Source of the DNA: Eledone cirrhosa
Lineage: Eukaryota
Direction of reading: 5' to 3'
Assembly: GCA_964016885.1 (NCBI GenBank)
Contig: OZ024758.1
Span: 5,952,001 to 6,016,000 of the forward strand
DNA length: 64,000 nucleotides
Translations under genes and position numbers: made by a program
Shown: piece after piece, positions 8,958 to 64,000 of the stretch
How the letters are laid out: each line of letters opens with the position of its first letter
Position numbering within the stretch: position 1 is the first letter of the stretch
The notes under the pieces: generated by a model
The model's database searches: none
What the model was told of the DNA's origin: nothing
The model's input: only the letters and a program-made list of their open reading frames with translations

Positions 8958-9004
<47 letters not shown>

Positions 9005-9060
9005 TATGCATATTTTATATATATATATGAATATACATATCTATACACACACACATATTT

Positions 9061-9096
<36 letters not shown>

Positions 9097-29500: not shown

Positions 29501-32500
29501 CAAAATAGTATGGTGACCACCACAAATGATCATCATCATCACTGTTTAATGGTTATTTTCCCATGCTAGCATGGGTTAGACAAGTTGTCCTGTTGTGAAA
29601 TAGGCCCGGTCAAGAGACCATGTCTTGCTCATACAGAACTGATTCCGGCTTGGTTTCTACAGCTGGATGCTCTTCCTAATGCCTAAATCAGGGGTCGGCA
29701 ATTTCTTTGCCTCCACGGGCCGGATTGAGTATTAATGACGGATAGCGGGCCGGACGAAGGCCATAAAAGAATAATTATGGAAAATTACACAAGCTAAAAT
29801 TTAATCACGAGCGTTAACTATACTTAAAAATAATTTGTATTAACCACAGATGAATGTAGTCATGAAAAAACATAATTTATTCAATTTATTCAATCATTGG
29901 AATCATTTGTTTAAAAAATCTTAAAAATACATAACACAATTTTTAATTGTGTTTTTGTTGTCAAAGTGTTCACATCCGGTGGTTGACATTGAGTGAATCA
30001 GATTTGTGGAAGAATGTAACAGCAGACTTTTTATTCTATTCAAAAGTCTCATCTCTCATATTACAACAAATTTAAATTCTAAATAAACAACTCATAGGGC
30101 ATCAGTTATCGTGGGCCGGATCTGGCGTAAATTCTAAATTCATGAGGAAATAATTGAATATAAGTCAAATAAAACAATGAATATGACACTACAATGCATG
30201 TGAATAAATGAATGTATGTGCTCATACATATACAAGTTAGATAATAATCCTGGTTTAGGTCAACAACACTTGTCACGTACTGAAGAATGTTTTCCATACC
30301 ATGAGAACACATCTGTGTGGTTTGATACAATAAAAGTTTGAGAAGACAGAAAACATGAAAGATGTTTCAGTAAGCTGTGATGTAAGCAAAAGTATCTTGC
30401 TACTTGCTACACTGTCAACCAGTAAAGACTTTAACCCTTTCAAGACTATTTCTAATGAAATACACTCTATTTTAATTAATTAATGGAAAATTTTGAGGGA
30501 TTTGCTAAAATTATTAATTATTCCATTACTAAGATAGTAACTTAATGTAAGGTTCTTATATAAACTTATGTTGGAAGATTTTAATTTAAATTAGAACCCT
30601 TAGTAGCTAAACCTGGGTATAAGAGGGATTGGTAGAGTGCAATAGAGCAGGTAGCCTTAGTATGGAGATGTGATGTGCATGTATGATGATCACTGTGTGA
30701 AGAAGTGCCAGGTAATCCAGTGGAAGGAAGCCACAGTAGAGGAAAACCAAAGAAGACATGAGAGGGGGTGGTGAGAGATGACCTCAAATTGCTGAAACTC
30801 ACAGAGATGGCAAAAGAACGTGATGAGCGGAGAGATGCTGTGCTGAAAAGGACCAGTCCAACCCATGCAAGCATGGAAAAGTTGACGTATGAGAATGATG
30901 AAAGTATATTCTCTACAAAATGGAGACATCTATGTAATTAAGCAACGATGAGATAAGAAAAGTTCCCTAAGTGACACCAGATATGATAAGGATTCTTCTT
31001 CTTCTAATCCTGTAACTCCCAAGGGAGTCACACGGGGCACCATTTTGAGATATGGTATTTCTTGAGGCATTTTTAAGCCTGGCAGAGCCCATCTCCTCTC
31101 CAGGTCTGAATACAGCAGATATCTTCCAGAGAAGGATAGAGAGAGTGAGAAAGAAGTGAAAAAGAGATACATAGGAAGAATCAACCCCCAGTACTAGACT
31201 GGTACTTTTTTTTTTTATCGATCTTCAATGGATGAAAGGCAAAATTACCTCGGTTGGATTTAAACTGAGAGAGTAGAGCTGAAATGAATTATTACAGAGC
31301 CTTCTCTCCAGCATTCTAACAACTCTGCCAATTTACCACCAATGATAAGGATGGACATGACTGAAACAATGAAGCATACCGTTTCTGATGAGATTCAAAC
31401 TATCCATTTTTCCACGCTAGCATGGGTTAGATGAGGTGTCCTATTGTGAGACAAGTCGGATCAGATGACCGTTTCTTGCTCACACAGAACTGTTTCTCAC
31501 TTGGTTTCTACGACTGGATGCCCTTCCAAATGCAAAACTACATTCACAGCATAGAATGGGTGCTTTTTATGATGGCACCAAAATGACCTACTGACAGGTT
31601 GGCCTGGGTGCTTTTTGTCATATCACTAACAAAACCTCATTACAGGATAGGCTGGGTGATTTTTGTTGTGTCACCAGGACAACCACTTTACAGGGTTGAC
31701 TGTGTGCTTTTCATGGTGTCACCAACATGACCACCTCACAGGGTGGGCTGGATGCCCTTCCTAATGCCAACCACTTTACAGTGTGTGCGCTGGGTGCTTT
31801 TTGTTGTGACTCCTACACAACCACTTTACAGTATGTGCTGGGTGCTTTTTGTTGTGACACATGACCACTTTACAGGTTGGACTGGACACCCCTTCCTAAC
31901 CCTAACTACCTAACAAGGTTGCTTTTGGCATAGTGCGAGAGGGGGAGGTGGGCTTCCCTCTTACCATGCTGCTATAGTTGTCCAATATATATATATATAT
32001 ATAGTGTGGACTGGGCACTTTTTGTCATGACACCTACATAACCACTTTACAGTGTGGATTAGTTGCTTGTGACACCTACACAACCACTTTACAGTGTGGA
32101 TTAGTTGCTTGTGACACCTACATAACCACTTTACAGTGTGGATTAGTTGCTTGTGACACCTACATAACCACTTTACAGTGTGGATTAGTTGCTTGTGACA
32201 CCTACATAACCACTTTACAGTGTGGACTAGTTGCTTGTGACACCTACATAACCACTTTACAGTGTGGACTAGTTGCTTGTGACACCTACATAACCACTTT
32301 ACAGTGTGGATTAGTTGCTTGTGACACCTACATAACCACTTTACAGTGTGGACTAGTTGCTTGTGACACCTACATAACCACTTTACAGTGTGGATTAGTT
32401 GCTTGTGACACCTACATAACCACTTTACAGTGTGGATTAGTTGCTTGTGACACCTACATAACCACTTTACAGTGTGGACTAGTTGCTTGTGACACCTACA

Positions 32501-34133
32501 TAACCACTTTACAGTGTGGATTAGTTGCTTGTGACACCTACATAACCACTTTACAGTGTGGACTAGTTGCTTGTGACACCTACACAACCACTTTACAGTG
32601 TGGATTAGTTGCTTGTGACACCTACATAACCACTTTACAGTGTGGACTAGTTGCTTGTGACACCTACATAACCACTTTACAGTGTGGATTAGTTGCTTGT
32701 GACACCTACACAACCACTTTACAGTGTGGACTAGTTGCTTGTGACACCTACATAACCACTTTACAGTGTGGATTAGTTGCTTGTGACACCTACATAACCA
32801 CTTTACAGTGTGGATTAGTTGCTTGTGACACCTACACAACCACTTTACAGTGTGGACTAGTTGCTTGTGACACCTACATAACCACTTTACAGTGTGGACT
32901 AGTTGCTTGTGACACCTACATAACCACTTTACAGTGTGGACTAGTTGCTTGTGACACCTACACAACCACTTTACAGTGTGGACTAGTTGCTTGTGACACC
33001 TACACAACCACTTTACAGTGTGGATTAGTTGCTTGTGACACCTACACAACCACTTTACAGTGTGGACTAGTTGCTTGTGACACCTACACAACCACTTTAC
33101 AGTGTGGACTAGTTGCTTGTGACACCTACACAACCACTTTACAGTGTGGACTAGTTGCTTGTGACACCTACACAACCACTTTACAGTGTGGACTAGTTGC
33201 TTGTGACACCTACATAACCACTTTACAGTGTGGACTAGTTGCTTGTGACACCTACACAACCACTTTACAGTGTGGACTAGTTGCTTGTGACACCTACACA
33301 ACCACTTTACAGTGTGGACTAGTTGCTTGTGACACCTACACAACCACTTTACAGTAAGAACTGGGCACTAAATGAATTGAATTCATCAATCTCCACAACT
33401 ACTGCAATTCCACAAATCTGCAATAAGATTGTTTTGTTGATCTACTATATATATTTCTGAAATAGTTATATATCACTATCCTGCTCTATGACAACAGTGT
33501 TTGCTGCCCACCAAAGGTTTCAGGATCCTAGACGGAATATTTACATACGTCTAGTTCGCTCATGAGAAAGATGGGGGACATATATTAATATTGTCTAGGG
33601 TTCTGAAACCTTCGGTAATGGAGTAGTTATATATTGTGTTGTTCCCTTTCTAATTAAATAGCTCTGTTTTATACATAGAACACTCTTTTTTCCTTTGCTT
33701 TTCGGAAATCCTTAACATATCATCATCATCGTCATCAATTTACGCCCGCTTTTCCCTGCTTGCAAGGGTGGGACAGGAACTGATTCTGGCTTGATTTCTA
33801 CAACTGGATGCCCTTCCTAACACCAACCTCATTTACAGTGTGGTGAGCTGGGTGCTTTTTTGCCGTGGCACCTCCACGACCACTTTACAGTGGAATGATA
33901 GGGACTGGAGTTTACAGCTGAGTAAACTGGAGCAATGTGAAATAAAGTGTCTTGCTCAAGGAAACAACACATCTCCCGGTCCGAGGATTGAACTCACAAC
34001 CTTTCGATTGCAAGCCCAATGCTCTAACCACTAAGCCATGTGCCTATATATATAGTCATGTGTCTATATATATATCATCATCATCATTTTACGTCCGCTT
34101 TTCCCTGCTTGCAAGGGTGGGACGGGTCTTATT

Positions 34134-38406: not shown

Positions 38407-38817
38407 ATGGATAACATAGGAGAAGCGGAACAATTGGATATCACCCGATATGTCCCAGAGCACCAGTGGGTGAAAGATGTTTTCCAAGACGTAATTGGAA
38501 ATTCTGCCACAAAACAAAGCCTCGTCGGAGGTGTTACGGGCTGGTGTACAGGGATACTGATTTCAAAAGCTGGCAAAATAGCCGCAGCTACAATGGGAAC
38601 TACCATCTTACTATTACAAGTGGCCCACCATCAGGATTATGTGAAATTCAACTGGAATAAAATTGAAGACAGCTTTCAAAAGGCTGGTAAGTCTATTATG
38701 AAAGAAACCAAGAAAAATTGTCCCGGTTTTGTATCGAGCACTGAAGCACTTTTCAAAAATAATATTGTATTTGCATCGATGTTTGCTGGTGGTTTTCTAA
38801 TGGGCTTTTCGTTTTGA
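38407..38817 (+). CDS. FUNDC1: FUN14 domain-containing protein (FUNDC1/2-like), intronless, 136 aa
   Basis: MDNIGEAEQLDITRYVPEHQW...QSLVGGVTGWCTGILISKAGKIAA...LLLQVAHHQDYVKFNWNKIE...NNIVFASMFAGGFLMGFSF matches the FUN14 pattern (GGVTGWC.G, LLLQ.A.H..Y....W, F.GGFL.G). Likely true start is Met58 of the track ORF. FUNDC1 versus FUNDC2 orthology is not resolvable here. Confidence 0.9.
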   Translation: MDNIGEAEQLDITRYVPEHQWVKDVFQDVIGNSATKQSLVGGVTGWCTGILISKAGKIAAATMGTTILLLQVAHHQDYVKFNWNKIEDSFQKAGKSIMKETKKNCPGFVSSTEALFKNNIVFASMFAGGFLMGFSF

Positions 38818-42688: not shown

Positions 42689-42880
42689 GGTGAACTAATT
42701 GTTGTGGAACTACTTCTATATATTACATACATACATACATACATGATGGCTTCCAACTCGTTTTCGAGTACGGCCACTACTTTATATCCATGTAGGAGAA
42801 CCCTACTGATGCGCTGAACGAGTGTGACTTTTCAGTCCAGCCAGCGACTTGAAAACTCTGGTACAAACACTACACTTGTG

Positions 42881-42937
<57 letters not shown>

Positions 42938-45431: not shown

Positions 45432-46919
45432 TATTATGTTTCTTGAATTGTGACTTAGTTGATTCCACCAGCCCCATGTGTTGTACAAGTTCTGCAATAA
45501 AAACATTGATGTTATTAAATGCAAGACTTTCCTTTCAAAGTAGAGCTTAACAGATGTGGTTATTTTGATGTTATCAAGACAGTAATAATATAGAATGGAG
45601 ATTTTGTCACCAAGATGATCATTTATCAATTTGACATTATCACATGGCTAGGTCAACAGAGCACCTCTTTAGTGTTGCAGTCAGTAGATAAACATTAATT
45701 GAAACAACGTGACTAACATAAAGTCACTATTTAGAGACTTTTGAGTCGCACCTTCTTTAAACTCTAAGTCAGCTGTCACTTTTTATAGGGAATTTGAGTA
45801 ATTTTCTTAAGACACTAATTACCAAACCTACACCATCTGGATGATTTCTTCTCAATATTGATTAATATGTAAGCAATATGAAAGAAGATATATGGTTCCA
45901 ACCGCAACAAAGCTGGTGAAACCTAACCCAGATGAAATAATTGTTTCTGATTTAGGCACAAGGCCAACAATTTTTTGGGGAGGTGAAAGTACTTTGTTTT
46001 ATTAACCCTGTAAAGATGAAAGACATTAGTAGGATTTGAACTCAGAACGTAAATGGCTGTAACTCTATACTACAAAGGTTGGTGTCTGATGCTCTACTGA
46101 TACTACCAATCCACTACCCTCTCATCAGATGAAATAATCAGCTTTCTATTATTAGGCCTGCATGTTGTCTTCAAGATTTATAGTCCTGGAATTATTTTTG
46201 AATAAGGCTATAAATATATTTTTATATAGAATTCCTTAATTCATGTACTTTAAGTTATATGACATAATTTTTCTTAAATTTCTTTAATACTCAATCCATA
46301 ATTACTGAAAAGAACACTGAAGACATTCTATTGATAAATGTGGTAGCTGTATATTGACTGGCTGACTTTCCCTCCCCAAAATTGTTGGCCTTGTGCCTAA
46401 ATCAGAAACCATTATTAGAAACATACGAAGGGCGATAGATTGACAGAATCGGTAGAGTATCGAACATGCTGCACGGCATAGAGTTACCCCCCTTAGGTTC
46501 TGAGTTCAATTCCTGCCGAGGTTAGCTTTGCCATTCATCCTTACGGGGATGAATGGTAAAATAAAGTACCAGTAACACACTGGGGTTGAATTAATCGACT
46601 TTCTCCTTCCTTTTAAATTGCTGGCCTTGTGCCAAACGTAGAAACAATTATTTAGAACTCTTAAAATGCTATAAAATGAGTGGTTTAAATTTTCCGATTG
46701 ATTTTAAGTTGAAACTAAATAATAGTTATTAAATGTGAGGTGAATGATGTGATTCTGTAACACATGCTGAGAGATATCTATTGAATATATATATGTTAAA
46801 TTATGAGCGCTAAGAAAATTACAGGTTGTCACTTTAAAATGTATACAATTGTCTCTGAGCCAAGCCAGGTGGTCTGTTTCTAATGCATAGATGCATATTT
46901 ATCTTGAGCCACGGAAAGT

Positions 46920-46927
46920 TATTTAAA
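46920..46927 (+). promoter_or_regulatory. TATA-like element upstream of the micro-exon gene
   Basis: TATTTAAA 60 nt upstream of the ATG at 46980; weak evidence in AT-rich DNA. Confidence 0.25.
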
Positions 46928-46979
46928 GGACGAATATTATAGAAACCTGTAAGTATTTCTCTTCAGCATACCACAGAAG

Positions 46980-47010
46980 ATGAAGACAAGTATCTTAATT
47001 GTTGCTCTGG
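46980..47010 (+). CDS. Micro-exon gene exon 1: signal peptide N-part ([10 protein letters not shown])
   Basis: aagATGA start context, 31 nt, donor G|GTAAGC, phase 1. Confidence 0.78.
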
Positions 47011-47856: not shown

Positions 47857-50028
47857 ATGATAAAGAACGTGGATTCAGTGTTGCATCATATCACATTTAA
47901 TAACATATTACATATGTTTCTCTATCGATCAGCTCGAGGCAAGATCTATTACAGATCGAACATGACTCTGAAATCGAAAGTTCTTCAGTTAGTTTAGTAT
48001 GATATTATACTCTGCTCTAAAGACACTGTATTTCACGTTGCGCCAGTTTACTCAGCTGTAGAAATGAGTTGAGACGTCACCGGTGCCAAGGTGTATCGAC
48101 CATTGCCTTTCCCTGGGGCAGAGAGGGGAGACTCGTATGCAAGGGTGACTGCTGGTCTTCCACAAACAGCCTTTCCAGGACTTGTGCCTCGGAAGAGAAC
48201 TTTCTAGGTGCAAATCTTATGGTCATTCGTGACCGAAGGGGGTCTTCACTTTTTATATATATAAGGATAAGTAGTTTGCATCATTTCCACCGTTACTGCG
48301 TATATATCTAAAGAAATTAACCCTGAATTATGCGACCTATCTATGTAGAAAATGGTTCAATAGTGTCTCCCTACTCACCACCATAGGCGCTGAGCTGGTC
48401 AGCCGCAGGTGTGAGTCTTACGAGCTGGAGTGGCTTTTCCAGCGCGTCTCCCTTGCCGTCCTCCAGGCAAACGCCTTCTCCATTCTGTCCGCCGGGGCTG
48501 TGGGGAGGCCACCAATATGATTGACTGACTTGTCATTTTATCAGTGAGGACAGAAATTATTTCATTTAGTTTTAATGAAATATAAGTTTCACTGTGATCA
48601 CAGCTCCCTCAATTGTGTGAAAATTGCAAATACTATTTCAGGATCGCTAAATATAAACGTAATGAACTTTCAAATGAAATTAGCTACATCCTTAGAATAC
48701 TGTCCAAGATTCTGTTCGTGTAATATATTTATTCCATGGGTATTATAGCTTTGGAGGCGTGTGGCCTCGTGGTAAGGGTGTTTCACTTACGATCATATTG
48801 TCGTAGGTTTGATTCCTAGACTATGTTGTGGTTTGAGTAATACATTTCATTACAATGCTCAGCTGAAAATGAGTACCAGTAATAGCTGAGGGTTTAACAT
48901 TGCGATGGACTGGCGTCCTGTCCACGGATACCTGGATAAGCACCAGCCTAATGGGTCTCCGAGCTCGAGACAAGTTTTATACCATTTTCTTTTAAAGATA
49001 TAATTAGAATCTTTAAAAACTCTCCCCACCGAAGTTAACAAAGAACTTACTAGATCTACAAAACCAAATTATAATTTTTTCTAAAGATATAATTAAAATA
49101 ATGACTTCATGTTTGGAAAAGAAATTGTTTTTTATTGATAAATTTATTTTTCTATTTCAGCCTTCTTCGCCACTGTGAGGTCAATCTCAATAGGTAAATA
49201 TAACTATTCAAGATTAGTTAAACATGAACGTGTGGCATGAAGATCGCTTACGCCCCGAAAGATTCATAGTATATAGTTTATATCTTGGCACCAATGATGT
49301 GCTTTGTAGTTATTTTCTTGTAATTGTATAAATGAAAACAATATAAAGAGCAATATTTATATATAAAAATGATAAAAGGTTTTTATGAGTAATTTTCTTG
49401 ATACGAAAGAGGAAATGATGAAGGAGTGAAGAAATATGTATGAACTGTATATCTATATAATCAATCGAGGGTTTATGAGTTCACTCTTAGACCGGGAGAT
49501 GCGTTGAGTAAGACACTTTATTTCACGTTGCTCTAGTTTACTCAGCTGTAGAAATGAGTTGCAACGTCACTGCTGCCAAGCTGTATTGGCCATTGCTTTT
49601 TTCTTGGACATCATCGGTGGCGTGGAGAGGGGAGGCTGGTATGCATGAGTGAATGCTGGTCTTCCTCAAACAATCTTGCTCGGACTTGTACCCGGCCAGA
49701 ACCAAAAAGTTTAAAACTATTACCACCTCTGTTAGCCAACTATCAGAGAACGAAGGACAACTTCGGACAGAGATATGAACTCTCCTCTCTAAATATGTAT
49801 GTAAAAACTAATAATTTTTCTTCCCCATTTTATCATTATTCGTATAAATATGCAACTTAACTGCACTTCCGCCGTTGAAAAAGCATATAATGCTGAAACC
49901 GGTACCACTATTGAATGCGGAAATACCCACTTTATAAATAAATGTTTTGATATTATACTGAAAAAATCCCTCCAGCATTTTCTACTGAATTACTATTTGT
50001 TTATATATATCAACTCGTGTGTTACTTT

Positions 50029-50088
<60 letters not shown>

Positions 50089-51930
50089 AATGGAAGTTTA
50101 GTAAAATCGAATTTTCGGCTGTAGCCAAGCCAACGAGATACAATGAGGAATTGTGCAGCCAAGCACTCCATGAGGAATCTCAGAGTAATAACATTCGTTA
50201 GACGGCATGACAAATTGAAAACTGTGGCAGGCAAGCCCAGTCACGACACCGAAGCAACGAGAAAACCAACAGGTTAATAAAACAAACCTGGACCATCTTG
50301 GAGGCAGATCGTCGTTTCTCCGAAAGGTTTCTATGAATCCCTAATCAACAATCCTACTTGCGCAAGTATGCAAGTTTTTGGTGTTTGAAGACCGAACTGG
50401 GGATTCATGTTATCAACAGGTTTCCGTTCTGTGCCTTGAAGTAGTAAGCCAATATATATATATTACATCCTTCCAACACTGGATTGGTGAATATACAACT
50501 GGATATATACACACACCCATATATATTTGTTACAACATATAGACACTTACTTCGATTTACACAAATGTCTATTTACTCTAGCTTTGGAGAAAACACCCCC
50601 AAATGCAATAAAAGACGAAGAAATAAGTAAGTACACGATAATGATGTATGTATATATGTATTTATGTATGGATATGTATGTATGTATGTATGTATGTATG
50701 CATGTTTATGTATGTATGCATGCATACCTACATGCATGTATATATGTATGTTCATGTATGTATGCATCATGTATGTATGTATGTATGTATGTATGTATGT
50801 ATGTATGTATGTATGTATGTATGTATGTATGTATGTCTTTCTCTTAATTTCGAGTACATTTTTGACAGGCCACCTTCCTGGTGGCAAGGTTGTAAAAGAA
50901 AAGAAATTGTCATTCTTTGAATCGCAAGAATGTTTTGCAAATTTTGAAGGTGCCAGATAACGCAACCATCTGTAGTCTATGAATTAGGGAGCTGCGCTCT
51001 TTGTCCAAAAATCCAAGTTAACTTTAGCGTCTGAATGAGTATCTGTGTGTATGTGTGTATATATGTGTATATGTGTGTTTTGAATCCCTACCTCCTTGCG
51101 GACAACTGACAACTGATGCTGTACACCAGGTCCGAACACAGAAGAGCCGAACTCCAACCATCTCTCTTGCCCTCCCCATCTCTCACTATTATGAGAAAGT
51201 GGGACCCCTTGTGCTGGCCGCCCCACGCCCCCGGCAGACAGAATAGAGAAGGCGTTTCCCCGGAGGATGGTAAGGGAGATGCGGTGGAAGAGCCATTCCA
51301 TCTCGTTAGGCTCACACCTGCAGCTAGCTAGCTCAGCGCCTATGGCGATAAGTAGGGTGGTAGCCCTAGGGCCAAGGACACCAGAAGTCTTTACTGCTAG
51401 GTGCTCGATTGCAAACCTGTCGGAGAGCGACCGGTACTTGGAGAGTTCGCCCGCCTCAGCCGGAAGAGCAATGAACCTCTGTATCGGACAGAGAAGAGAA
51501 TAAATCGCTGTTTCCACCCCACCACACCTATACTTTTGAAATTTGGGATTGCTATAAAGACAATATAGATTTCCTTTGACTACAGAATACACCAGAAACA
51601 GACATGAATTGCTACTGTCCATCTATATATCTAAAACAGAGAATGTCTGTCTGTCTGTCTGTCTGTCTGTCTGACTTCCTAAAACTCGAGAACCACCCAA
51701 CCAATTGTTCTCAAACGTTACACATGTAATACTTATGGTCCTGTGAGTGTTTTGAGCAAAATATATTTCACATTTTCAATGCCCTAGGGACCGCATTAGG
51801 CGATTTAGCGATCTCTCTCTATAATTCTTAGTCTTTCTTTTTAGATAGATACATAGATATAACGTTGCGCCTTATAATATCTGTCTGCATTACGACATTA
51901 TGACGCTATATGTGTGTGTGTGTGTGTGTG

Positions 51931-52729: not shown

Positions 52730-54110
52730 TATATTCGTGTACAGATATTTTTGCATACACAATAACAAAATATAAACAAACGTATTTATTTCACGAGGCT
52801 TGATAAGGATAAATATATATCAAATATATAAGAACCCTAGAGCAAATCCCCATCAACGCCGGGTCATTCTGCTAGTATTCACTAAAACATGACTCTCCCA
52901 ATGTTTGGAGCGACATTTTCCTAAAATTCGATGCCTAATCACGTGATATTCCCCAAAAAATCAAAATCCCTGCACACGAAGAATGAATATAAGCATAGAT
53001 ATAGATTCGCACACATATGTATTTGGTATTGAATATATTTCACATACTTCGATTTACACATATCTCTATTTACTAAAATATATATAATATTTCTTTTCAG
53101 TTTTCAAGAGAGCAACACCAAAACCAACGCCAACCACAAATGGAACAAGTAAGTACACAATAAGGATGTATGTGTATCACATTAGACAAATGGTCTCTGG
53201 TATAATCTTGAGGTTAACTTTAGCTTCTGAACGAAATATATACTAATAAATTTACTAAATCACACTACCGTAAGATGGTTTGTGGCAACTACCGTATTTC
53301 CCGACGTCGAAGACGCTACTTTTTTCCTAAAATAAGTCTCAAAAATTTAAAATGCATCCTGAAGGCCGAAGGTTGTTTATTATTTTTTTCAAGGCGGTGG
53401 ATTGGCAGTATCGGTAGAGGGTCGGACGCCATGCTTTCCAGCATAGTTACGTCCCTTTACGATTTGAGTTCAAATCCTGCCGAGGTTGACTTTGCCTTTC
53501 ATCCTTACGGGGTCGATAAAATAAAGTACCAGTAATGCACTGGGTAATTGCTGGCCTTGTGCCTAAAGTAGAAACAATTATTTTTTTCAATTTTTGGCTG
53601 TCAAAATTAGGATGCGTCCTCGAGGAATACGATATATCATTGCCACACACTAGTGGAATGAATTCAGGAAATAGAGAATGAATTCTGATAGAGATTTAAT
53701 AGTGTAGTGGTAATATTGAATCAATTATTTAGGATTATCAATATATATATATATATATACAATACATAAATAGAGAAAACCTTAAGCGATACTCCGACCA
53801 ATTCCATCTCACTCAACAAACATTAGGATATACTTAAGTATTATCCCAATTTAGTGTTTGGGGTGCTAACTAATCAGTATTTCGTGGATAGTTGGTTGTA
53901 TTATTTTATATGAGACATTATTAAATAAATATCTCTTTCCTTCCAGACGGCCATTTCGTTATAAGATTTCTACAATTTGGGATAAATAATTTCCAGGGTA
54001 TGTAGAAACTTGTATATAATCCGTAGCGGGCTCATAAACTCATCAGTGGATGCCCAAATTAATATCGATATAAGAATTATATCGACATTAATAGAATGGT
54101 GATGGCCTCC

Positions 54111-54702: not shown

Positions 54703-55242
54703 CTATAGTATATATATCTATTTACTATATGTATATCTATTTACTATAATATATATATTTATTTACTATATGTATATATAACATTTTTTTTTCAGCTGCG
54801 GAGAAAATAATCTCAATATGGAGTGAAGGCAAACAAATATGTAAGTACACGATAATGATGTATATGTATGTATGTATGTATGTATATATATATATATATG
54901 TATATATATGTATATATATTCCCAGTGAAAAATAGTTTAATTAGGAATAAGTATAAATTAGTAATAAGTATTGGTTAGTATTCAGTTTTAGTTTTAAGTT
55001 TTTACCGGTTGCGCATTTCTAATGCTTTTCAAAAATAATTTTGAGATAGAGCGCTCGTGATGTTTGCTCTATCACGAGCGCTCTATCTCAAAATTATTTT
55101 TGAAAAGCATTAGAAATGCGCAACCGGTAAAAACTTAAAACTAAAACTGAATACTAACCAATACTTATTACTAATTTATACTTATTCCTAATTAAACTAT
55201 TTTTCACTGGGAAAAATTTGTCAGCATTTTCTTTTCCTTTTA

Positions 55243-55311
<69 letters not shown>

Positions 55312-55398
55312 GTGTGTGTGTAAATATATAAATTATCCTTCCCTCACAATATTGGTGATTATACGAATGAACATATACTCACACACATATATCTATTT

Positions 55399-55433
<35 letters not shown>

Positions 55434-57979
55434 CTATTTACTGTAATATATATATATTTACTGTAATATATAATATTTTTACTATATATATATCTATTTA
55501 CTATAATATATATCTATTTACTATAAGAAATATATATCTATTTACTATAAGAGATATATATCTATTTACTATAATATATATATCTATTTACTATAATATA
55601 TATATCTATTTACTATAATATATATATATTTACTATAATATATATTTACTATAATATATATATATATATTTACTATAATATATATATATCTATTTACTAT
55701 AATATATATATCTATTTACTATAATATATATATATCTATTTACTATAATATATATATATATATATTTACTATAATATATATAACTTATTTTTCCAGTAGT
55801 TTCGAACGAAACACTCAAAGATTTAATAAAAAACAAAGGTAAGTACACGAACATGATGTATGTATGTATGTATGTATGTATGTATGTATGTATGTATGTA
55901 TGTATGTATGTATGTATGTATGTATCTATCTATGTGTATGGTAAACGACTTGGAGTGGTTGATCAGTTTGTCTACCTGGGAAGCACTGTCAATCGATACA
56001 GCAAACTTGATAGTGAAATCTCACTTAGGATTAGGAAAGCAAGTGATGTTTTCGGAAAGCTAGAAAGGCGACTCTGGGGTCGGCGAGATATATGCAAGAA
56101 GACAAAGGTAAAGGTGTACAAGGCATGTGTGCCCTCTTCTCTTCTTTATGCCTGCGAGACCTGGGTCACATATCGACACCACCTTAAGCAATTGGAGCGT
56201 TTCCATCAGATGTATTTCAGACGGATCCATGGCGTTCACTGGAGGGACCACATCAGTGACATCGAGATTTTGGAGAGCTCTATGTGTGACAGTATAGAAA
56301 CTTTTGTGCTTAAGCAACGACTCCGTTGGAGTAGTCACCTTGCCAGGATGAAGGATTCTAGAATACCAAAACAACGCTTTTATGGAGAGTTAGTTAAAGC
56401 AAAACGACCGCCACATAAACCAAAAAAGAGGTATAAGGATTCCTTGAAAGCCTCTTTGAAAGATGCTAAGATCTTTGCTGAAACATGGGAAAATATTGCT
56501 GCTGATCGTAATAAATGGAGAAAGACTGTATATGAGGGAAAAAGTTGCCTTTGAGGCATCTCGTATCGCATACGAGAAAGTAAAGCGGGATGTGAGGAAG
56601 GTCATTGCTGTTGCACTTCCAGACGGAGAGGGTCCTCCTATAGTGCTGACATGCAGCGCCTGTGCGAGACTCTGCCTAAGCAAAACTGGACTCGAAAGTC
56701 ATCTTCGCAGTCATAAAGTAAGACCAATGGTTGACTACCAGGCTGCTGTTGGAGATGCTACTCATCATGCTTGCCAAGCATGTGGTAGAGAATGTAAATC
56801 AGCAGAAGGGCTCAAACGACATACAAAAAGTACATGAACTCCAACCACAGCCGGCTATTCCCAGTGAATGTTTTGGTTGCTGACTCTGTGCAAGACATTT
56901 TAGATCATTGGCTGGGCTAAAAATCCACATTCGATCGCAGCACAGGTTAGTTGTTATCGTGTGTGTGTGTGTGTATAGATATGTTTATGTGTGTGCGTGT
57001 GTGCGTATATATATATATATATATATGTATATTATTATTGTTGTTGTCGTTATTGTTATTGTTGTTATTATTATTATTATTGTTATTAATATATGTGTAT
57101 ATATATATATTTTTTTTTTTTCGTGCAATGGCCATACTCAATAACGAGGGGGCAGCCATCATGTATGTATGTATGTATGTATGTTCTTCTGGGAAACTTT
57201 GATAAAAAAACCTGCGGCTTCGGAAGCATCCGATGATGTTGACCAGTTCTCCTTTTCGGGAAGTGTTTTCGATGCTTAGAGAGTAGGATTGGTCGAGTGC
57301 AAGCCCTTTCGCCACTTGAAAATCCTTCAAAGCACAGGCATTGCTTGTTCAGGATATGTTACATGTTCGAATGGCTGGCCGTAGCCTAAATGTGCACCAT
57401 TTTCTGTAATATAACAAGCGATTGCAATACTCTTAGCAGAGATTTCAGCCATCATGTATGTATGTATATTATTTAGATATCACCTTTCCGCAGACGATTG
57501 GTGTATATAGGAATAGACATATATTCACACCCATATGTATTTGCTATTGTATATATACACACATACTTCGATTTACACATATCTCTATTTTCTATAATAT
57601 ATAAAATATTTCTTTCTAGATTCCAACAGACCAACGCGAAGCGAGAATAAAATACGTAAGTACACGACAAAGATGTATGTGTATCACCTTTGACAAATGG
57701 TCTCTGGTATAATTTTGAGGTTAACTTTAGCTTCTCATTGAAATATATAGTAATAGGTTTACTAAATCACACCACTATAAGATGGTTTATGCAACTATAT
57801 CATTGCCATACAATATCTGCTAAGTGGAATTTAGGAAACAAACTATTCTCATATAGATTTAGTAGAGTTGCGGTAATATCGAACAAATTATTTAAGGTTT
57901 TCAAAATATGTGGTGACATCTGGTGACTGATATTAGGGATTTACATGTATCCTCCGTTCTTGTACCCACACACGCACAC

Positions 57980-58187: not shown

Positions 58188-61100
58188 TATTGTTGCTCTG
58201 AAATAGCGATATATACATGAATGTATGTATAGTATATTTGGCAATATACCGTATGTTTAATTAAAAACATTTAGAAGACCATTCACTATCAATTTTAAAG
58301 TAGTGATTATGTCACTTACTTATATTTTCGGCAAAGGTTGGGAGAGTAGCTGACAGCTGTTTTTCGTTGCTTGGCATTTATCAAAGCCACGCACTCACCT
58401 GCCTTTGCCGAAAATTATAGAAGCTGGATTCTTATTGAATTCCAGTAATAATCTGGAGTTGATTACACAGAGCGATTGCCGGTCCAGCAAAAATTAGGTA
58501 TTAGTATTGGTGCTCTGAAATAGCTAAACATACGGTATATTGCCAAATATGCTATACATACATCGCTAGTTCAGAGCACCACCACTAATACCTAATTCTT
58601 TTTGGGTAGTGTTTTCGATGCTCAGATATTGGGAGTAGTCGAGTGCAAGGCCTTTCGCCAATTGAAAAACCTTCAAAGCACAGCCATTGCTTGTTCAGGA
58701 TCTGTTACAGGTTCGTGTGCCTAGCTGTAGCCTAAAAGTTCAAGAAACTCTATAACCTGACAAGCGATTGCAATACTCTTAGCAAAGTTTTCAGCCATCA
58801 TGTAGATTATGATAGATATCAACTATCAGCAGACGATTGGTGTATATAGGAATACACATATATTCACACCCATATGTATTTGCTATTGTATATATACACA
58901 TACTTCCATTTACACATCTCTATTTACTAAAATATGGCATTTCTTTCCAGTCGTCAAGAGAGCAATGCCAGAAACAACACGTCCCTTAGATGCAGACGGT
59001 AAGTACACGACAATGATGTATGTGTATCAAATTAGACAAATGGTCTCTGGTATAATTTTGAGGTGGAATCTCCAGGGCATCTCCCTTACCATCCTCCGGG
59101 AAAAGTCTTCTCCATTTTGTTCGCCGGGGCTGTGGGGAGGCCAGCACGTGGGACCCCATTTACTCACCATACAGAGAGATGGGGAGGGCGAGAGAGATGT
59201 AGGCGATGACAGTGGGAGTTCGGCTCTTCTACGTTCGGACCATATCCTTGTGGTCGTTTTTATCATCTATTTAGAAAATTATTTGTCATTAACCGTCTCT
59301 CTGTCATCTTGAACTCTTTTGATTTCACTCGGAAGATTAACATCTTGAGGTTAACTATAGCTTCTGAATGAAATATATAGTAATAGGTTTACTAAATCAC
59401 ACCACTATAAGACGGTTTATGCATATGACAACAGAGAGGACTATTTCTCTCGATGTATTATCATGCGTAAGATTCTCTTCAGTGAGTCGAGGTTTACGCT
59501 ATGACAGGAGTGTGTGCAATTTTGAGTGTCGTGCTCAGTGAGTCGAGCTAAAAGAAACCGTGGGCTGATTATCATGTGTTTCATAGCTTTCGCCGTACCT
59601 CGACCAGTCGAAAAGTGTTCCCGCAGAGACCCAACTGAATCCAGAATATACCACAGACAAAAACATGTTGGTGTGTGACAAGGAAAATGATGTGTGTTTG
59701 ATGTAAAACGTTATTAATACAGTAAAACGAATAATAAAAAAAAAAATATATATATAAAAGACATTCATATATAATCTGTAAAAAAATAAAAATATATTTA
59801 TGTAATTGTTCTTATAAATGATTTGGTTATATATGGTTTACTTCACGTGAATCAATTAAAAAGTACATATAAAAACAGTTACCAAGAGTTCTTAAGGTTG
59901 ACAATGTTTTTGTTGTTGGTTTATGAGACTGTTGTAGTCTGTAGTAGTTGACTGTTGTTGATGTGAAAACAGCGAGCGACAGATAATTGTTGCTGTTGTT
60001 GGAATTTGGAGTCCGTGGTAGTAGTTGTGAGACCGTAGTTAGTAAGAGAAGGAGAGATATGGTTTGTATACCTCTGTTATGGTCTGTCGTAACTGTGAAG
60101 AACCGTGGCCTGCAGACAGCGGTGAATCTTACACATTTGTGTTCTGTAGTAGTAGGGCTCCAATCGCTCTGGGTGTATCTGTAGACCTCATGGGTCTGTT
60201 GATAGCAGTGAATCCTTACATAGTTAGTTGCTAGCGTAATGCTCCGATGTCTCTGGCTCTGTAAACCACTGGGGTCCGTTGATAGTGGTGAATCCTTACA
60301 TAGTTAGTTATAGGTGTAATGCTCCGATGTATCTGTGTAAAATAGCTTGATGCAGGCTCTATATATAGCTGTCACTTCCTGTCCCCCAACCTGAGGGGAT
60401 AGTTAACACACCAACCTGTCTACACCAAAAGGGTGTTGACCTAGAATTTGACCTTTAGGAGTCACCCAAGGTTCAAGGCGAGGACAGATTTCGCTACATA
60501 TATATATATGTATGTATGTATGTATGTATCTATGTATGTATGTATGTATGTATGTGTGTGTGTATATGTGTATGTATGTCTGTGTGATCTTGACCAGTTG
60601 TTTTGGGGTAGTGTTTTCGATGCTCAGAGATTGGGAGTAGTCGAGTGCAAGGCCTTTCTCCACTTGAAAAACCTTCAAAGCACAGGCATTGCTTGTTCAG
60701 GATCTGTTACAGGTTCGTGTGCCTAGCTGTAGCCTAAAAGTTCAAGAAACTCTATAACCTGACAAGCGATTGCAATACTCTTAGCAAAGTTTTCAGCCAT
60801 CATGTAGATTATGATAAATATCAACTATCAGCAGACGATTGGTGTATATAGGAATACACATATATTCACACCCATATGTATTTGCTATTGTATATATACA
60901 CATACTTCCATTTACACATATCTCTATTTACTAAAATATGGCATTTCTTTCCAGGTTTCGATGAATTAACGTCAAAACCATTGCCACCCTTGATTGAACA
61001 CGGTAAGTACACGACAATGATGTATGTGTATTACATTAGACAAATGGTCCCTGGTATAATTTTGAGGTGGAATGGCTCTTCCAGCGCATCTCCCTTACCA

Positions 61101-62472
61101 TCCTCCGGGAAAAAGTCTTCTCCATTTTGTCTGCAGGGGCTGAGGGGAGGCCAGTACGTGGGACCCCATTTGCTCACCATACAGAGAGATGGGGAGGGCG
61201 AGAGAGATGGAGGCGATGACAGTGGGAGTTCGGCTCTTCTACGTTCGGACCATATCCTTGTGGTCGTTTTTATCATCTATATAGAAAATTATTTGTCATT
61301 AACCGTCTCTCTGTCGTCTTGAAGTCTTTTGGTTTCACTTGGAAGATTAACATCTTGAGGTTAACTTTAGCTTCAGAATGAAATATATACTAATAGGTTT
61401 ACTAAATCACACCACTATAAGATGGTTTATGCAACTATATCATTGCCATACAATATATGCTAAGTGGAATTTCGGAAACAGACTATTCTCATACAGATTT
61501 AGTAGAGTTGCGGTAATATTGAACACATTATTTAAGGTTTTCAAAATATGTAGTGACATCATGTCAGCAGACGATTGGTGTATATAGGAATACACATATA
61601 TTCACACTCATATGTATTTGCTATTGTATATATACACATACTTCGACTTACACATATCTCTATTTACTAAAATATGGCATTTCTTTCCAGTTTTCAAGAG
61701 AGCAATGCCAAGCCTTGTGCCACGCTTAAATGATAAAGGTAAGTACACGACAATGTACTGACAGACACACACACACACATGTATATATTTGGGAAAAGTA
61801 AATAAAATAAAGAAAAATGTAACAATTTACTTAGAATGTCCCTGCTGCAGTTTCATTGAGTAAACATCAGGACTGAGTGCTGCGAATGCGTATGTATGTA
61901 TGTATGTATGTGCTACTGGTAGCATGTATCCCTGTACAACCTGACTCATGGTCGGGTCGCTGGCGACTAAACTGACAACCTCACCCAGGTTTCTTGGTGA
62001 CGAGGGTGACTTTGGACATCCTGCAGGACTAAAAACCTGTCAAAGGGCAAAGGAGCTCTTAAGAGTCAATGGCATTCCAAAATCAAGAGATGACCCCTTA
62101 GCCTTTGTCAAGGCAACTCTGATGGTATCCAATATTGTTGACTTGTTCTTTTTGGTAAATATCATCTTGGTGAAGAGAGTGGGACTGGCTTTGTGCAGTG
62201 CCTTTGCTCACTATAAAAGCTTCACAGTACAGGCATTGCTTTATATCTGGAGATCTCTCTGCACTTGTCGTCACATGGTACCATGGGCCCAGCACTATGT
62301 GTCAATAATTGTCACAGGTGTAGTGTTTGTACCAGAGTTTTCAAGTCGCTGGCTGGACTAAAAAGTCACATTCGTTCAGCGCATCGGTAGGGGTTCTCCT
62401 ACATGGATATAAAGTAGTGGCCGTACTCGAAAACGAGTTGGCAGCCACCATGTATGTATGTATGTATGTATG

Positions 62473-62521
<49 letters not shown>

Positions 62522-62948
62522 TGTTGACTAGTTGTTTGGGGGTAGTGTTTTCGATGCTCAGAGATTGGGAGTATTCGAGTGCAAGGCCTTTATCCACTTG
62601 AAAAACCTTCAAAGCACAGGCATTGCTTGTTCAGGATCTGTTACAGGTTCGTGGGCCTAGCTGTAGCCTAAAAGTTCAAGAAACTCTATAATCTGACAAG
62701 CGGTTGCAATACTATTAGCAATACTATTAGCAAAGTTTTCAGCCATGATGTAGATTATGATAGATATCAACTATCAGCAGACGATTGGTGTATATAGGAA
62801 TACACATATATTCACACTCATATGTATTTGCTATTGTATATATACACATACTTCGACTTACACATATCTCTATTTACTAAAATATGGCATTTCTTTCCAG
62901 TTGACAACAGAGCGGTGCCAAGCTCATTGGGAGGCTTAAATGATAAAG
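46980..62948 (+). CDS. Unrecognised secreted protein encoded by a tandem micro-exon array (11 exons seen, 3' end beyond window)
   Basis: All exons are GT-AG and phase 1. They join stop-free to [157 protein letters not shown] (157 codons + 1 nt). Confidence 0.85.
47588..47732. mobile_element. Fold-back/MITE element, same family as 52486-52614
   Basis: agagtgggtaatatgaaaagattc ... gaatcttttcatattacccactct imperfect inverted arms. Confidence 0.75.
48370..48510 (+). mobile_element. CRE-like fragment; further + copies at about 36060-36200, 59065-59250, 61068-61255
   Basis: [42 protein letters not shown], homologous to the 51130-51490 element but in the opposite orientation. Confidence 0.78.
49161..49193 (+). 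CDS. Micro-exon gene exon 2: signal peptide C-part ([11 protein letters not shown])
   Basis: tttttctatttcag acceptor, AG|GTAAAT donor, 33 nt, completes the hydrophobic core. Confidence 0.75.
50582..50626 (+). CDS. Micro-exon 3 ([15 protein letters not shown]), 45 nt
   Basis: Shared upstream flank (tacttcgatttacac...ctatttact), tag acceptor, GTAAGTACACG donor. Confidence 0.82.
51130..51490 (-). mobile_element. CRE-like non-LTR retrotransposon 3' end (restriction-like endonuclease C-terminus)
   Basis: [25 protein letters not shown]...[20 protein letters not shown] resembles the KY...AVET.G..G...QRISLAI.RGNA signature. Confidence 0.8.
52124..52391. mobile_element. MITE with about 90-bp terminal inverted repeats
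   Basis: tagtat...aaaacgaaaaatcagtgatgcatctggactcagttta mirrored at 52298-52391. Confidence 0.85.
52486..52614. mobile_element. Loopless palindrome, fold-back/MITE family
   Basis: Centre at 52550/52551 (ggactaaa|tttagtcc), about 64-bp arms; shares gagctcagccgtcggggtcct...tattacccactct with the 47588-47732 element. Confidence 0.8.
53101..53148 (+). CDS. Micro-exon 4 ([16 protein letters not shown]), 48 nt
   Basis: ttcttttcag acceptor, GTAAGTACAC donor, shared flanks. Confidence 0.87.
53292..53633. mobile_element. Mariner-like MITE interrupted by a tRNA-derived SINE (about 53392-53580)
   Basis: ccgtatttcccgacgtcgaagacgc ... gcgtcctcgaggaatacgat; inner SINE with B-box GAGTTCAAATCC. Confidence 0.6.
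53941..54050 (-). ncRNA. Type I hammerhead ribozyme motif with palindromic loopless stem III and long stem-loop II
   Basis: Minus strand TCCA-CTGATGA-gtttatgag...cttataac-GAAA-TGGCCG-TC-TGGA; GUC triplet; inner hairpin tttctaca/tgtagaaa in loop II. Confidence 0.7.
54796..54840 (+). CDS. Micro-exon 5 ([15 protein letters not shown]), 45 nt
   Basis: tttttttttcag acceptor, GTAAGTACACG donor. Confidence 0.83.
54919..55213. repeat. Perfect palindrome, 143-bp arms, 9-nt loop
   Basis: 54919-55061 is the reverse complement of 55071-55213; loop gtttgctct. Confidence 0.95.
55390..55782. repeat. AT-rich minisatellite (tatatatatctatttactataa)n
   Basis: Variable 18-26 bp units just upstream of micro-exon 6; a shorter version precedes micro-exon 5 (54695-54780). 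Confidence 0.9.
55797..55838 (+). CDS. Micro-exon 6 ([14 protein letters not shown]), 42 nt, NAGNAG acceptor
   Basis: tttttcCAGTAG acceptor, AG|GTAAGTACACG donor. Confidence 0.83.
55940..56945 (+). mobile_element. RTE-clade LINE 3' fragment (RT C-terminus plus C2H2 zinc fingers), frameshifted
   Basis: [12 protein letters not shown]...[17 protein letters not shown]...[20 protein letters not shown]...[19 protein letters not shown]; downstream [21 protein letters not shown]-type fingers. Confidence 0.92.
57620..57655 (+). CDS. Micro-exon 7 ([12 protein letters not shown]), 36 nt
   Basis: tttctttctag acceptor, GTAAGTACACG donor, shared flanks. Confidence 0.84.
58182..58600. mobile_element. Nested fold-back element
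   Basis: tattagtatt(g/t)gtgctctgaaatagc occurs twice directly and once inverted; tatttggcaatataccgtatgttta is mirrored; internal hairpin ttttcggcaaagg/cctttgccgaaaa. Confidence 0.65.
58951..58998 (+). CDS. Micro-exon 8 ([16 protein letters not shown]), 48 nt
   Basis: atttctttccag acceptor, G|GTAAGTACACG donor. Confidence 0.88.
59426..60498 (-). mobile_element. Possible solo LTR (about 1.07 kb)
   Basis: Minus strand begins TGTAGCG and ends TGTCA, TATA-like tatatatag near 60360; it interrupts the conserved intron unit; no clean TSD. Confidence 0.45.
60955..61002 (+). CDS. Micro-exon 9 ([16 protein letters not shown]), 48 nt
   Basis: Same acceptor and donor flanks as micro-exon 8. Confidence 0.88.
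61691..61738 (+). CDS. Micro-exon 10 ([16 protein letters not shown]), 48 nt
   Basis: atttctttccag acceptor, AG|GTAAGTACACG donor. Confidence 0.88.
61913..62450 (-). mobile_element. Interspersed element bounded by (TATG)n; copy at 63197-63785, inverted fragment at 42744-42880
   Basis: Near-identical copies, each delimited by (CATA)n/(TATG)n on both sides. Confidence 0.7.
62901..62948 (+). CDS. Micro-exon 11 ([16 protein letters not shown]), 48 nt
   Basis: 127 nt upstream flank identical to that of micro-exon 10; same donor. Confidence 0.88.
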
Positions 62949-63784
62949 GTAAGTACACGACAATGTACTGACAGACACACACACACACATATATATATTT
63001 GGGAAAATTAAATAAAATAAAGAAAAATGTAACAATTTACTTAGAATGTCCCTGCTGCAGTTTGATTGAGTAAACATCAGGGCTGAGTGCTGCGAATGCG
63101 TATGTATGTATGTATGTATGTATGTATGTATGTATGTATGTATGTATGTATGTATGTATGTATGTATGTATGTATGTATGTATGTATGTATGTATGTGCT
63201 ACTGGTAACATGTATCCCTGTACAACCTGACTCATGGTCGGGTCGCTGGCGACTAAACTGACAACCTTACCTAGGTTTCTTGGTGACGAGGGTGACTTTG
63301 GACATCCTGCAGGACTAAAAACAAAACCTGTCAAAGGGCAAAGGAGCTCTTAAGAGTCCATGGCAATCCAAAATCACCGGGAGAGATGACCCCTTAGCCT
63401 TTGTCAAGGCAGAATTCTAGGAAAAGGAAAACTCTGATATAACACCTGCAACTCTGATGGTATCCAATGATGTTGACTTGTTCTTTTTGGTAAATATCAT
63501 CTTGGTTAAGAGAGTGGGACTGGCTTTGTGCAGTGCCTTTGCTCACTATAAAAGCTTCACAGTACAGGCATTGCTTTATATCTGGATATCTCTCTGCACT
63601 TGTCGTCACATGGTACCATGGGCCCAGCACTATGTGTCAATAATTGTCACAGGTGTAGTGTTTGTACCAGAGTTTTCAAGTCGCTGGCTGGACTAAAAAG
63701 TCACATTCGTTCAGCGCATCGGTAGGGGTTCTCCTACATGGATATAAAGTAGTGGCCGTACTCGAAAACGAGTTGGCAGCCACC

Positions 63785-63816
<32 letters not shown>

Positions 63817-63866: not shown

Positions 63867-64000
63867 GTTGTTGACTAGTTGTTTTTGGGTAGTGTTTTCG
63901 ATGCTCAGAGATTGGGAGTATTCGAGTGCAAGGCCTTTATCCACTTGAAAAACCTTCAAAGCACAGCCATTGCTTGTTCAGGATCTGTTACAGGTTCGTG

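Follow-up and report, generated by a model that had tools for sequence, protein, structure and literature searches.

Why should the exons of a gene differ far more from one another than the introns that surround them? The question is raised by a locus of the octopod Eledone cirrhosa, in a stretch of 64,000 nucleotides (the window; assembly GCA_964016885.1, contig OZ024758.1, positions 5952001-6016000 of the forward strand) within a 3.0-Gb genome, to which 99 kb of downstream sequence was added for analysis. From genomic sequence alone, we predict a single-copy gene for a secreted protein, made of two signal-peptide exons (E1-E2), 20 tandem micro-exons (E3-E22) and a cationic last coding exon. 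The micro-exons sit in 20 homologous cassettes, and the near-identical central introns (E8-E16) surround exons of several older lineages. We favour, with a probability of about 0.58, an explanation in which gene conversion and unequal crossover homogenise the introns, the exons being kept apart by selection, with mild diversifying selection in addition.

The predicted gene has 23 exons, of which the 21 internal ones measure 33-57 nt, are all multiples of 3 and have phase 1-1; small symmetric exons hold 978 of its 1293 coding nt. The micro-exons themselves are 36-57 nt long, every length divisible by 3, and encode units of 12-19 residues in phase 1-1, starting at codon position 2. None of the 20 contains a stop codon in the coding frame, compared with 15/20 and 13/20 in the other two frames (p = 8e-7 and 1e-5). 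Cassettes were detected by running a donor profile across the window and the 99 kb downstream. Exactly 20 score at least 18.6, all on the + strand between 50582 and 84060 (continued window coordinates), and the next best score is 10.5. Eleven of them lie beyond the window end, past which the array extends 20 kb. An extended donor motif (GTAAGTACACGA.AATG) occupies the first 20 nt after the micro-exon and is kept in all 20 cassettes, the older ones included; it may be a splicing element. All seven genome matches of an exact 24-nt donor pattern fall in this array. A looser acceptor-donor pattern has 15 matches, ten in the array and five as scattered singletons, and a control pattern has 6. In the same genome, the last coding exon and the first-exon region each have one match.

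The contrast was first noticed in two pairs of neighbouring cassettes, and our counts agree with those made by hand in the sequence-only reading. E10 (61691-61738, + strand, as are all window positions given below unless stated) and E11 (62901-62948) differ at 12 of 48 nt; 7 of the 15 whole codons change the amino acid and one codon change is purely synonymous. The 127 nt upstream of E10 (61564-61690) are identical to 62774-62900 (0/127), and the downstream flanks differ at 4/170, giving 4/297 for both flanks together (exon versus flank, Fisher p = 1.7e-8). E8 (58951-58998) and E9 (60955-61002) differ at 23 of 48 nt between near-identical flanks (6/348 upstream and 20/414 downstream, together 26/762; Fisher p = 3.6e-18). 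Upstream, the E8 flank (58596-58950) and the E9 flank (60598-60954) share about 98% identity. Downstream, the E8 flank (58999-59423), which holds a dispersed-repeat fragment, shares about 95% identity with the E9 flank (61003-61433) and 97% with the E16 flank. Length, frame and splice sites are preserved as had been described: E8-E11 are all 48 nt long, lie between AG and GT and have an open frame.

Not every pair shows this contrast. E10 is identical to E13 beyond the window (0/48), E12 and E15 differ at 2/57 and E11 and E14 at 5/48. Across the core cassettes E8-E16, flanks are 0-6% apart and exons differ at 5-25 of 48 nt, save E10 = E13 and E12/E15. Intron 10 (61739-62900) is the first of five homologous introns (I10-I14) of 1142-1301 nt, with (GTAT)n tracts and a high-copy repeat; they show 10-37 differences per 1002 aligned columns and are thus 96-99% identical (12/1002 for I10/I13, 10/1002 for I11/I14). 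Intron 11 starts at 62949 and continues beyond the window end at 64000. With microsatellites masked, twelve pairwise alignments of flanks or introns were scanned in 48-column windows. The worst window holds 2-7 mismatches in 11 of them, while the 10 mismatches in the worst window of the twelfth are a misalignment at a non-homologous junction. Where introns are properly aligned, no such window has more than 7 mismatches. Among the 28 pairs that can be drawn from the 48-nt exons (E4, E8-E11, E13, E14 and E16), the proportion of synonymous differences (pS) is 0.10-0.35 in 27, the remaining pair being identical, and the nonsynonymous proportion (pN) exceeds pS in 26. At the splice sites, exon divergence sets in abruptly, without a shoulder in the adjoining flank.

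Purifying selection on splice elements was considered as a cause of the flank identity in the core and rejected. Similarity is no lower in the distal, repeat-derived flank than in the proximal flank (mostly 1-7% divergence per 20-nt bin, maximum 9%), and splice-signal constraint therefore does not explain the identity. Such constraint may account for the conservation of the donor motif throughout the 20 cassettes.

An assembly error could in principle mimic this pattern, if the flanks had been collapsed into, or polished towards, one consensus or if two haplotypes had been placed in tandem. The E10-E12 and E13-E15 blocks are about 1% apart in their introns, a plausible allelic distance, and the four runs placed on contig positions 6010701-6020700 (80% likeness) are swamped by repeats, none of the listed pieces spanning an exon together with unique flank. 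One contig joint (6488 to 60, depth 26-28), recovered from both runs of a single sample, may represent a mosaic flank. However, the flanks carry private substitutions, indels and microsatellites of differing length. The junction before E10 also differs from that before E13, and the one after E12 from that after E15, which would not be expected of a duplicated haplotype. Moreover, the same contrast is found in cassettes with clearly distinct flanks, such as E21/E22 compared with the core, and consensus errors would blur the exons as well. An artefact is thus barely credible.

The comparison of exon nonsynonymous (dN) and synonymous (dS) divergence with intron divergence, which had been proposed as a check, was made by codon maximum likelihood (MG94-type model, one dN/dS ratio omega, 15 codons per exon, three fixed trees). 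The set comprised E8-E12 and E14-E16; E13 was omitted as identical to E10, and four ambiguous E12/E15 columns were treated as missing. Omega was estimated at 2.0-2.4, and at 2.5 with E4 included, which suggests moderate diversifying selection on the exons (omega about 2-2.5). The total dS of the exons was 0.60-0.76, whereas the branches of the upstream-flank tree add up to about 0.10 over E8, E9 and E11-E15. Forcing the exon dS to 0.10 drove omega to 12-17 and was rejected (p = 0.0004-0.04 for doublets of 0-10% on the three trees). Equal dS was also rejected in the single-step model when the flank length was set to 0.15-0.20 (p = 0.003-0.05). In four sister pairs, 3 pure synonymous codon changes were observed for 0.74 expected (p = 0.039), and E11/E14 alone shows 2 for 0.07 expected (p = 0.0025). 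Selection alone fits poorly as the cause of the contrast between exons and flanks and, given the synonymous excess, introns should be treated with caution as a clock.

These figures bear directly on the possibility that the cassettes were duplicated recently and that positive selection then acted in an intense burst. The flanks would be an honest clock, and the exons would have changed at about 10-17 times their pace once the central array had expanded. The predominance of pN over pS in 26 of the 28 pairs is what such a burst would give, as are the 6 amino-acid changes without any purely synonymous codon change between E10 and E14, and the step-sharp exon boundary would call for no conversion model. 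Nor is the burst rejected in most tests when doublet mutations are common (10-25%, with a flank length of 0.15-0.20). In the single-step model, however, it needs an omega of 8-17 and the likelihood fits give 2.0-2.8. The excess of pure synonymous changes (p = 0.039) speaks against it, and so do the third codon positions, which hold 8 of 37 changes and are not significantly below uniform (p = 0.27), and the flank-to-flank exchange that is seen directly. We regard a burst as unlikely, yet as deserving real weight.

That exchange was found in the upstream flanks, where 12 of 78 pairs of informative sites proved incompatible. I11 is sister to I14 overall, yet it has in common with I12 a substitution at site -222, and both lack a 12-nt duplication; this points to an exchanged tract of about 50-65 nt. 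In addition, the intron type switches inside the (TATG)n tract after the E12 donor, and cassettes differ in their junctions before E10 versus E13 and after E12 versus E15. The introns thus contain at least one short exchanged tract as well as microsatellite junctions.

The edge of the array provides a test of the clock. The exon of E4 (53101-53148, 48 nt) groups with E8-E16 with a support of 100/100. Its upstream element differs from that of the core at 17/104-106 positions (16%), while the exon differs at only 15-22 of 48 nt, like pairs within the core. A constant exon/flank ratio of 17 was rejected in 6 of 6 E4 comparisons (p ≤ 8e-4). E21 and E22 show the opposite pattern: their element is 6-8/98-100 from the core and their exons 26-37/48. 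A selection burst of episodic form escapes the E4 test, and it could also yield the pattern of E4 versus E21/E22. The exon tree rejects a clade of E21/E22 and the core that leaves out E4 (p-AU = 0.002, approximately unbiased test), and the upstream-flank tree rejects E9+E12+E15 (p-AU = 0.004); in each case the rival grouping is poorly supported in the other partition. The upstream-element tree leaves out E16.

Several results weigh against intron homogenisation with selectively maintained exons. Each exon offers only 15 codons, and the case for omega > 1 is marginal (p = 0.026-0.105 against omega = 1; 0.05-0.20 in doublet models). With 10% doublets and a flank length of 0.15-0.20, the synonymous excess has p > 0.05 in 5 of 6 tests, the sixth giving 0.047, and with 25% doublets it loses significance in 8 of 9. 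The clustering of incompatible flank sites is not significant (p = 0.069), and an E8+E9 clade is compatible with the exon data (p-AU = 0.32). The element tree keeps E4 with the core (61/76), so that the conflict between exon and element lies in branch lengths. Opposition between selection and conversion also predicts a shoulder of divergence beside the exons unless tracts are short; its absence would be explained by tracts as short as the 50-65 nt suggested above.

Homogenised introns could also be combined with exons that merely drift. Once diverged, exons would block conversion by mismatch and evolve as neutral spacers, constrained to keep the frame and to avoid stop codons. The micro-exon peptides are indeed of low complexity and have no invariant residue, and omega = 1 is not rejected on 2 of 3 trees (p = 0.07 and 0.105) or in 11 of 12 further fits. 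Against this, omega was estimated above 2 in all 12 of those fits, and omega = 1 was rejected with E4 included (p = 0.026). Divergence would moreover have to start despite conversion; in E11/E14, exons already differ at 5/48 and flanks at 6/828. We thus consider such neutral escape improbable.

A mutational process aimed at exons would raise substitution there only, by error-prone repair or by conversion with edited or reverse-transcribed mRNA. It would account for a divergence that steps up at the splice sites without a shoulder and for the elevation of synonymous sites, clearest in the young pair E11/E14; conversion templated by mRNA would match the exon limits exactly. However, the substitution spectrum equals that of the flanks (transitions to transversions 16:21 in exons versus 20:24 in flanks, p = 1.0) and shows no editing signature, E10 = E13 and E12/E15 lack synonymous change, and the array shows no sign of intron loss. 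This explanation is very improbable. RNA editing or a transversion-biased mutator was rejected on the same spectrum, in which the 37 exon changes include 9 A<->G and 7 C<->T, without an A-to-G skew. A bolder version is a long shot: a germline process raising substitution only between splice sites would, together with exon skipping, generate combinatorial secreted peptides, as a cephalopod counterpart of the schistosome micro-exon genes (MEGs). It would explain both the step-sharp boundary and the synonymous excess in the youngest pair, E11/E14.

The sequence-only reading had left strong diversifying selection, intron homogenisation and an exon-targeted mutator unranked. Homogenisation is now favoured by the synonymous excess, the exchanged tract and the E4 clock; diversifying selection is only moderately suggested, and the spectrum speaks against the mutator. 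Under homogenisation, the gene would have grown by tandem duplication of an exon-plus-intron cassette. Adjacent introns would go on exchanging sequence through short-tract gene conversion and unequal crossover, and tracts that overwrite an exon would be blocked by accumulated mismatches or purged by selection, so that introns look young and exons retain their age. Further amino-acid change would come from moderate diversifying selection (omega about 2-2.5).

We compared this locus with known systems, as described in the available parts of the papers cited below. The closest precedent for the intron/exon contrast is SmPoMuc, the polymorphic mucins of Schistosoma mansoni, which consist of repeats in tandem, each roughly 1 kb and comprising a micro-exon with its flanking intron, with microsatellites between them and introns >93-94% identical. 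According to the authors, gene conversion acts in the introns alone and selection maintains the differences between exons (PMC2576457). Octopod I10-I14 are likewise repeats of about 1 kb, >93% identical, with (GTAT)n tracts. In contrast to the octopod gene, SmPoMuc is a multigene mucin family whose 27-nt exons, encoding 9-residue repeats, are uniform within a cluster (PMC2576457). The octopod gene is a single locus with exons of 36-57 nt, one identical pair among 20, an omega of about 2, dibasic sites and a cationic C-terminus, and homology between the two is neither detected nor expected. In the primate red and green opsins, the introns of duplicates are also homogenised while a selected exon stays diverged (PMC3924837). 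That case involves two whole genes and two key residues (PMC3924837), whereas at least nine intragenic micro-exons have diverged here along their whole length. The mechanism is thus already known from schistosome SmPoMuc and primate opsins; the gene is apparently undescribed and looks new.

The likeness to schistosome MEGs, drawn earlier, is apt for the architecture, SmPoMuc being closer for the contrast. MEGs share with the octopod gene a signal peptide, small symmetric exons, elevated dN/dS, transposon-rich introns and predicted disorder (PMC4350168, PMC10526429). MEG exons are mostly 15 nt long (range 6-81), the octopod micro-exons being larger, and MEGs are described as flatworm-restricted, with alternative splicing shown (PMC4350168, PMC10526429). 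The available MEG accounts do not describe homogenised introns, and 'gene conversion' has 0 occurrences in the accessible text of PMC4350168. Membership in the flatworm MEG family was rejected, as the host is an octopod and the last coding exon has no homologue match in the protein searches. A MEG-like architecture is nonetheless found here in a free-living mollusc, whereas the accessible account confines MEGs to flatworms (PMC4350168).

Aphid bicycle genes also encode fast-evolving secreted proteins from many micro-exons of similar size, in one phase and starting at codon position 2; they form a large multigene family with CYC motifs (PMC9168663), whereas the octopod gene is a single locus without cysteine in the 15-codon cores of its micro-exons. 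We therefore rejected membership in the bicycle family on the single copy and the lack of a CYC motif. In the spider silk genes MaSp2 and flagelliform, iterated introns 94-99.7% identical within a gene delimit coding repeats, as here, but the coding repeats are homogenised too (PMC9779670), while the octopod micro-exons diverge. Dscam resembles the octopod gene in its tandemly duplicated, diverged internal exons, for which selection against homogenisation has been proposed; it differs in that these are mutually exclusive exons for Ig domains, and gene conversion was not detected in that study as far as its available text goes (PMC3236188).

In toxin genes, exons evolving faster than introns are often read as accelerated evolution, and the parts of selection, homogenisation and a mutator have long been debated. 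Snake PLA2 genes are toxin genes with such conserved introns and fast exons. Conotoxin genes also combine conserved introns with fast exons and have a signal peptide split over the first exons (PMC3862624). The octopod gene is like toxin genes in that its exon divergence is far above that of its introns, with omega > 1 marginal. Toxin genes differ in belonging to multigene families of short, cysteine-framed toxins (PMC3862624), the octopod locus being an intragenic array of cassettes. With nine young and eleven older cassettes in one gene, it offers a compact system for that debate.

If every exon is used, the predicted product has 431 residues. A signal peptide is predicted over E1-E2, whose hydrophobic core spans the two exons with a hydropathy peak of 3.3 (9-residue window). 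Dibasic sites occur in 8 of the 20 micro-exons, E17-E22 form an acidic block with a net charge of -24, and the 15-codon cores of the 20 micro-exons contain no cysteine. The last coding exon (308 nt, contig 6039336-6039643) holds a 94-residue open reading frame (ORF) and its stop codon, 21 nt ahead of the next donor. With 28 K/R, this ORF has a net charge of +23, and a single-sequence structure model shows the cationic C-terminus as one long helix over residues 24-93, with a weak predicted template modelling score (pTM 0.41). The product is thus predicted to be a disordered prepro-protein, which is probably cut into peptides. It is possibly varied by exon skipping, which symmetric exons permit. 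Precursors of cationic host-defence peptides have a signal peptide, an acidic pro-region, basic processing sites and a cationic helical C-terminal peptide. The predicted product matches this layout in its signal peptide, dibasic sites, acidic block and cationic helix. From architecture and rate of change, the role may tentatively be guessed to be host defence or mucosal; reproduction is possible, a little less so, the venom gland is doubtful, and any other role more doubtful still. The gene probably sits at an interface that evolves fast, in defence, reproduction or venom, and that searches by homology miss. The cationic exon also holds a short internal repeat coding RKNRKNRKN (L023:4400-4470). 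The two best public sequence sets share only 0.69 of its sampled words; it may be polymorphic, or fragmented in the contigs of those sets. The sets listed for this exon include none of RNA, a blank that speaks neither for nor against expression.

Protein searches with the last coding exon found no homologue (0 of 188 candidates, 0 of 15 near ones), nor did searches of 50% representatives (0) or Pfam (0), and the ESM Atlas gave no usable match; these negatives cover this low-complexity 94-mer only, and blanks are no proof of absence. The micro-exon peptide profile is too short for protein search, and the array lies outside these negatives. In a literature search covering mostly open-access main texts, supplements (possibly holding a transcript) aside, we found no description of such a cephalopod gene. 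Nor did we find literature on micro-exon genes combining gene conversion of introns with positive selection, and the available part of a cephalopod venom preprint contains no match to this gene.

The 5' part of the gene begins with a TATA-like TTATTTAAAG at 46919-46928, a putative promoter about 50-60 nt upstream of the ATG. E1 (46980-47010), single copy in the genome, carries the ATG, the first half of the predicted signal peptide and a phase-1 donor, GTAAGC; the second half is in E2 (49161-49193, 33 nt). E3 (50582-50626, 45 nt), an older cassette, precedes E4 and is followed after it by E5 (54796-54840, 45 nt), E6 (55797-55838, 42 nt) and E7 (57620-57655, 36 nt). E12-E22 lie beyond the window at contig positions 6016236-6036060 (+ strand), as does the last coding exon, and a putative 3' untranslated exon with AATAAA is found near contig 6041108-6041300. 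The intron preceding E20 (contig 6032114-6032161) ends in CAC and not AG, with the frame still open, and E19 and E21 carry weaker donors, GTCAGT and GTTAGT. E19, E20 and E21 are candidates for skipped or decaying exons.

Repeats are frequent in the introns. An element of about 600 nt, present in very high copy, lies in (TATG)n tracts at 61890-62460 and 63176-63800, inverted at 42724-42883, and recurs in introns 12-14, 16, 20 and 21. Its 5' ends differ between introns, and its placement suggests repeated targeted insertion. In front of E6, E17-E19 and E22, the 3' end of the upstream element common to the cassettes has given rise to a minisatellite of about 22 nt (window 55380-55782; L021:7841-8027 and 8805-10000; and ahead of E22). 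The minisatellite shifts the upstream element up to >1 kb from the exon, with the acceptor kept. Intron 6 contains a C-terminal fragment of the reverse transcriptase of a long interspersed nuclear element with zinc-finger-like motifs (55935-56840), which we take to be RTE-like, adjoining an (ATGT)n tract.

Upstream of the array, an intronless FUN14/FUNDC1-like ORF (38407-38817) is 91% identical to its counterpart in Octopus bimaculoides and 82% to that in Argonauta hians, and is a synteny anchor for an orthologous array. Two long homogeneous minisatellites lie at 27252-28082 (23 nt x 36) and 32028-33355 (42 nt x 31.6); the latter contains open frames of 450-468 residues on both strands and is probably non-coding. 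Downstream of the gene, near contig position 6110590 on the - strand, a 336-residue stop-to-stop frame resembles, by eye, a 7-transmembrane receptor.

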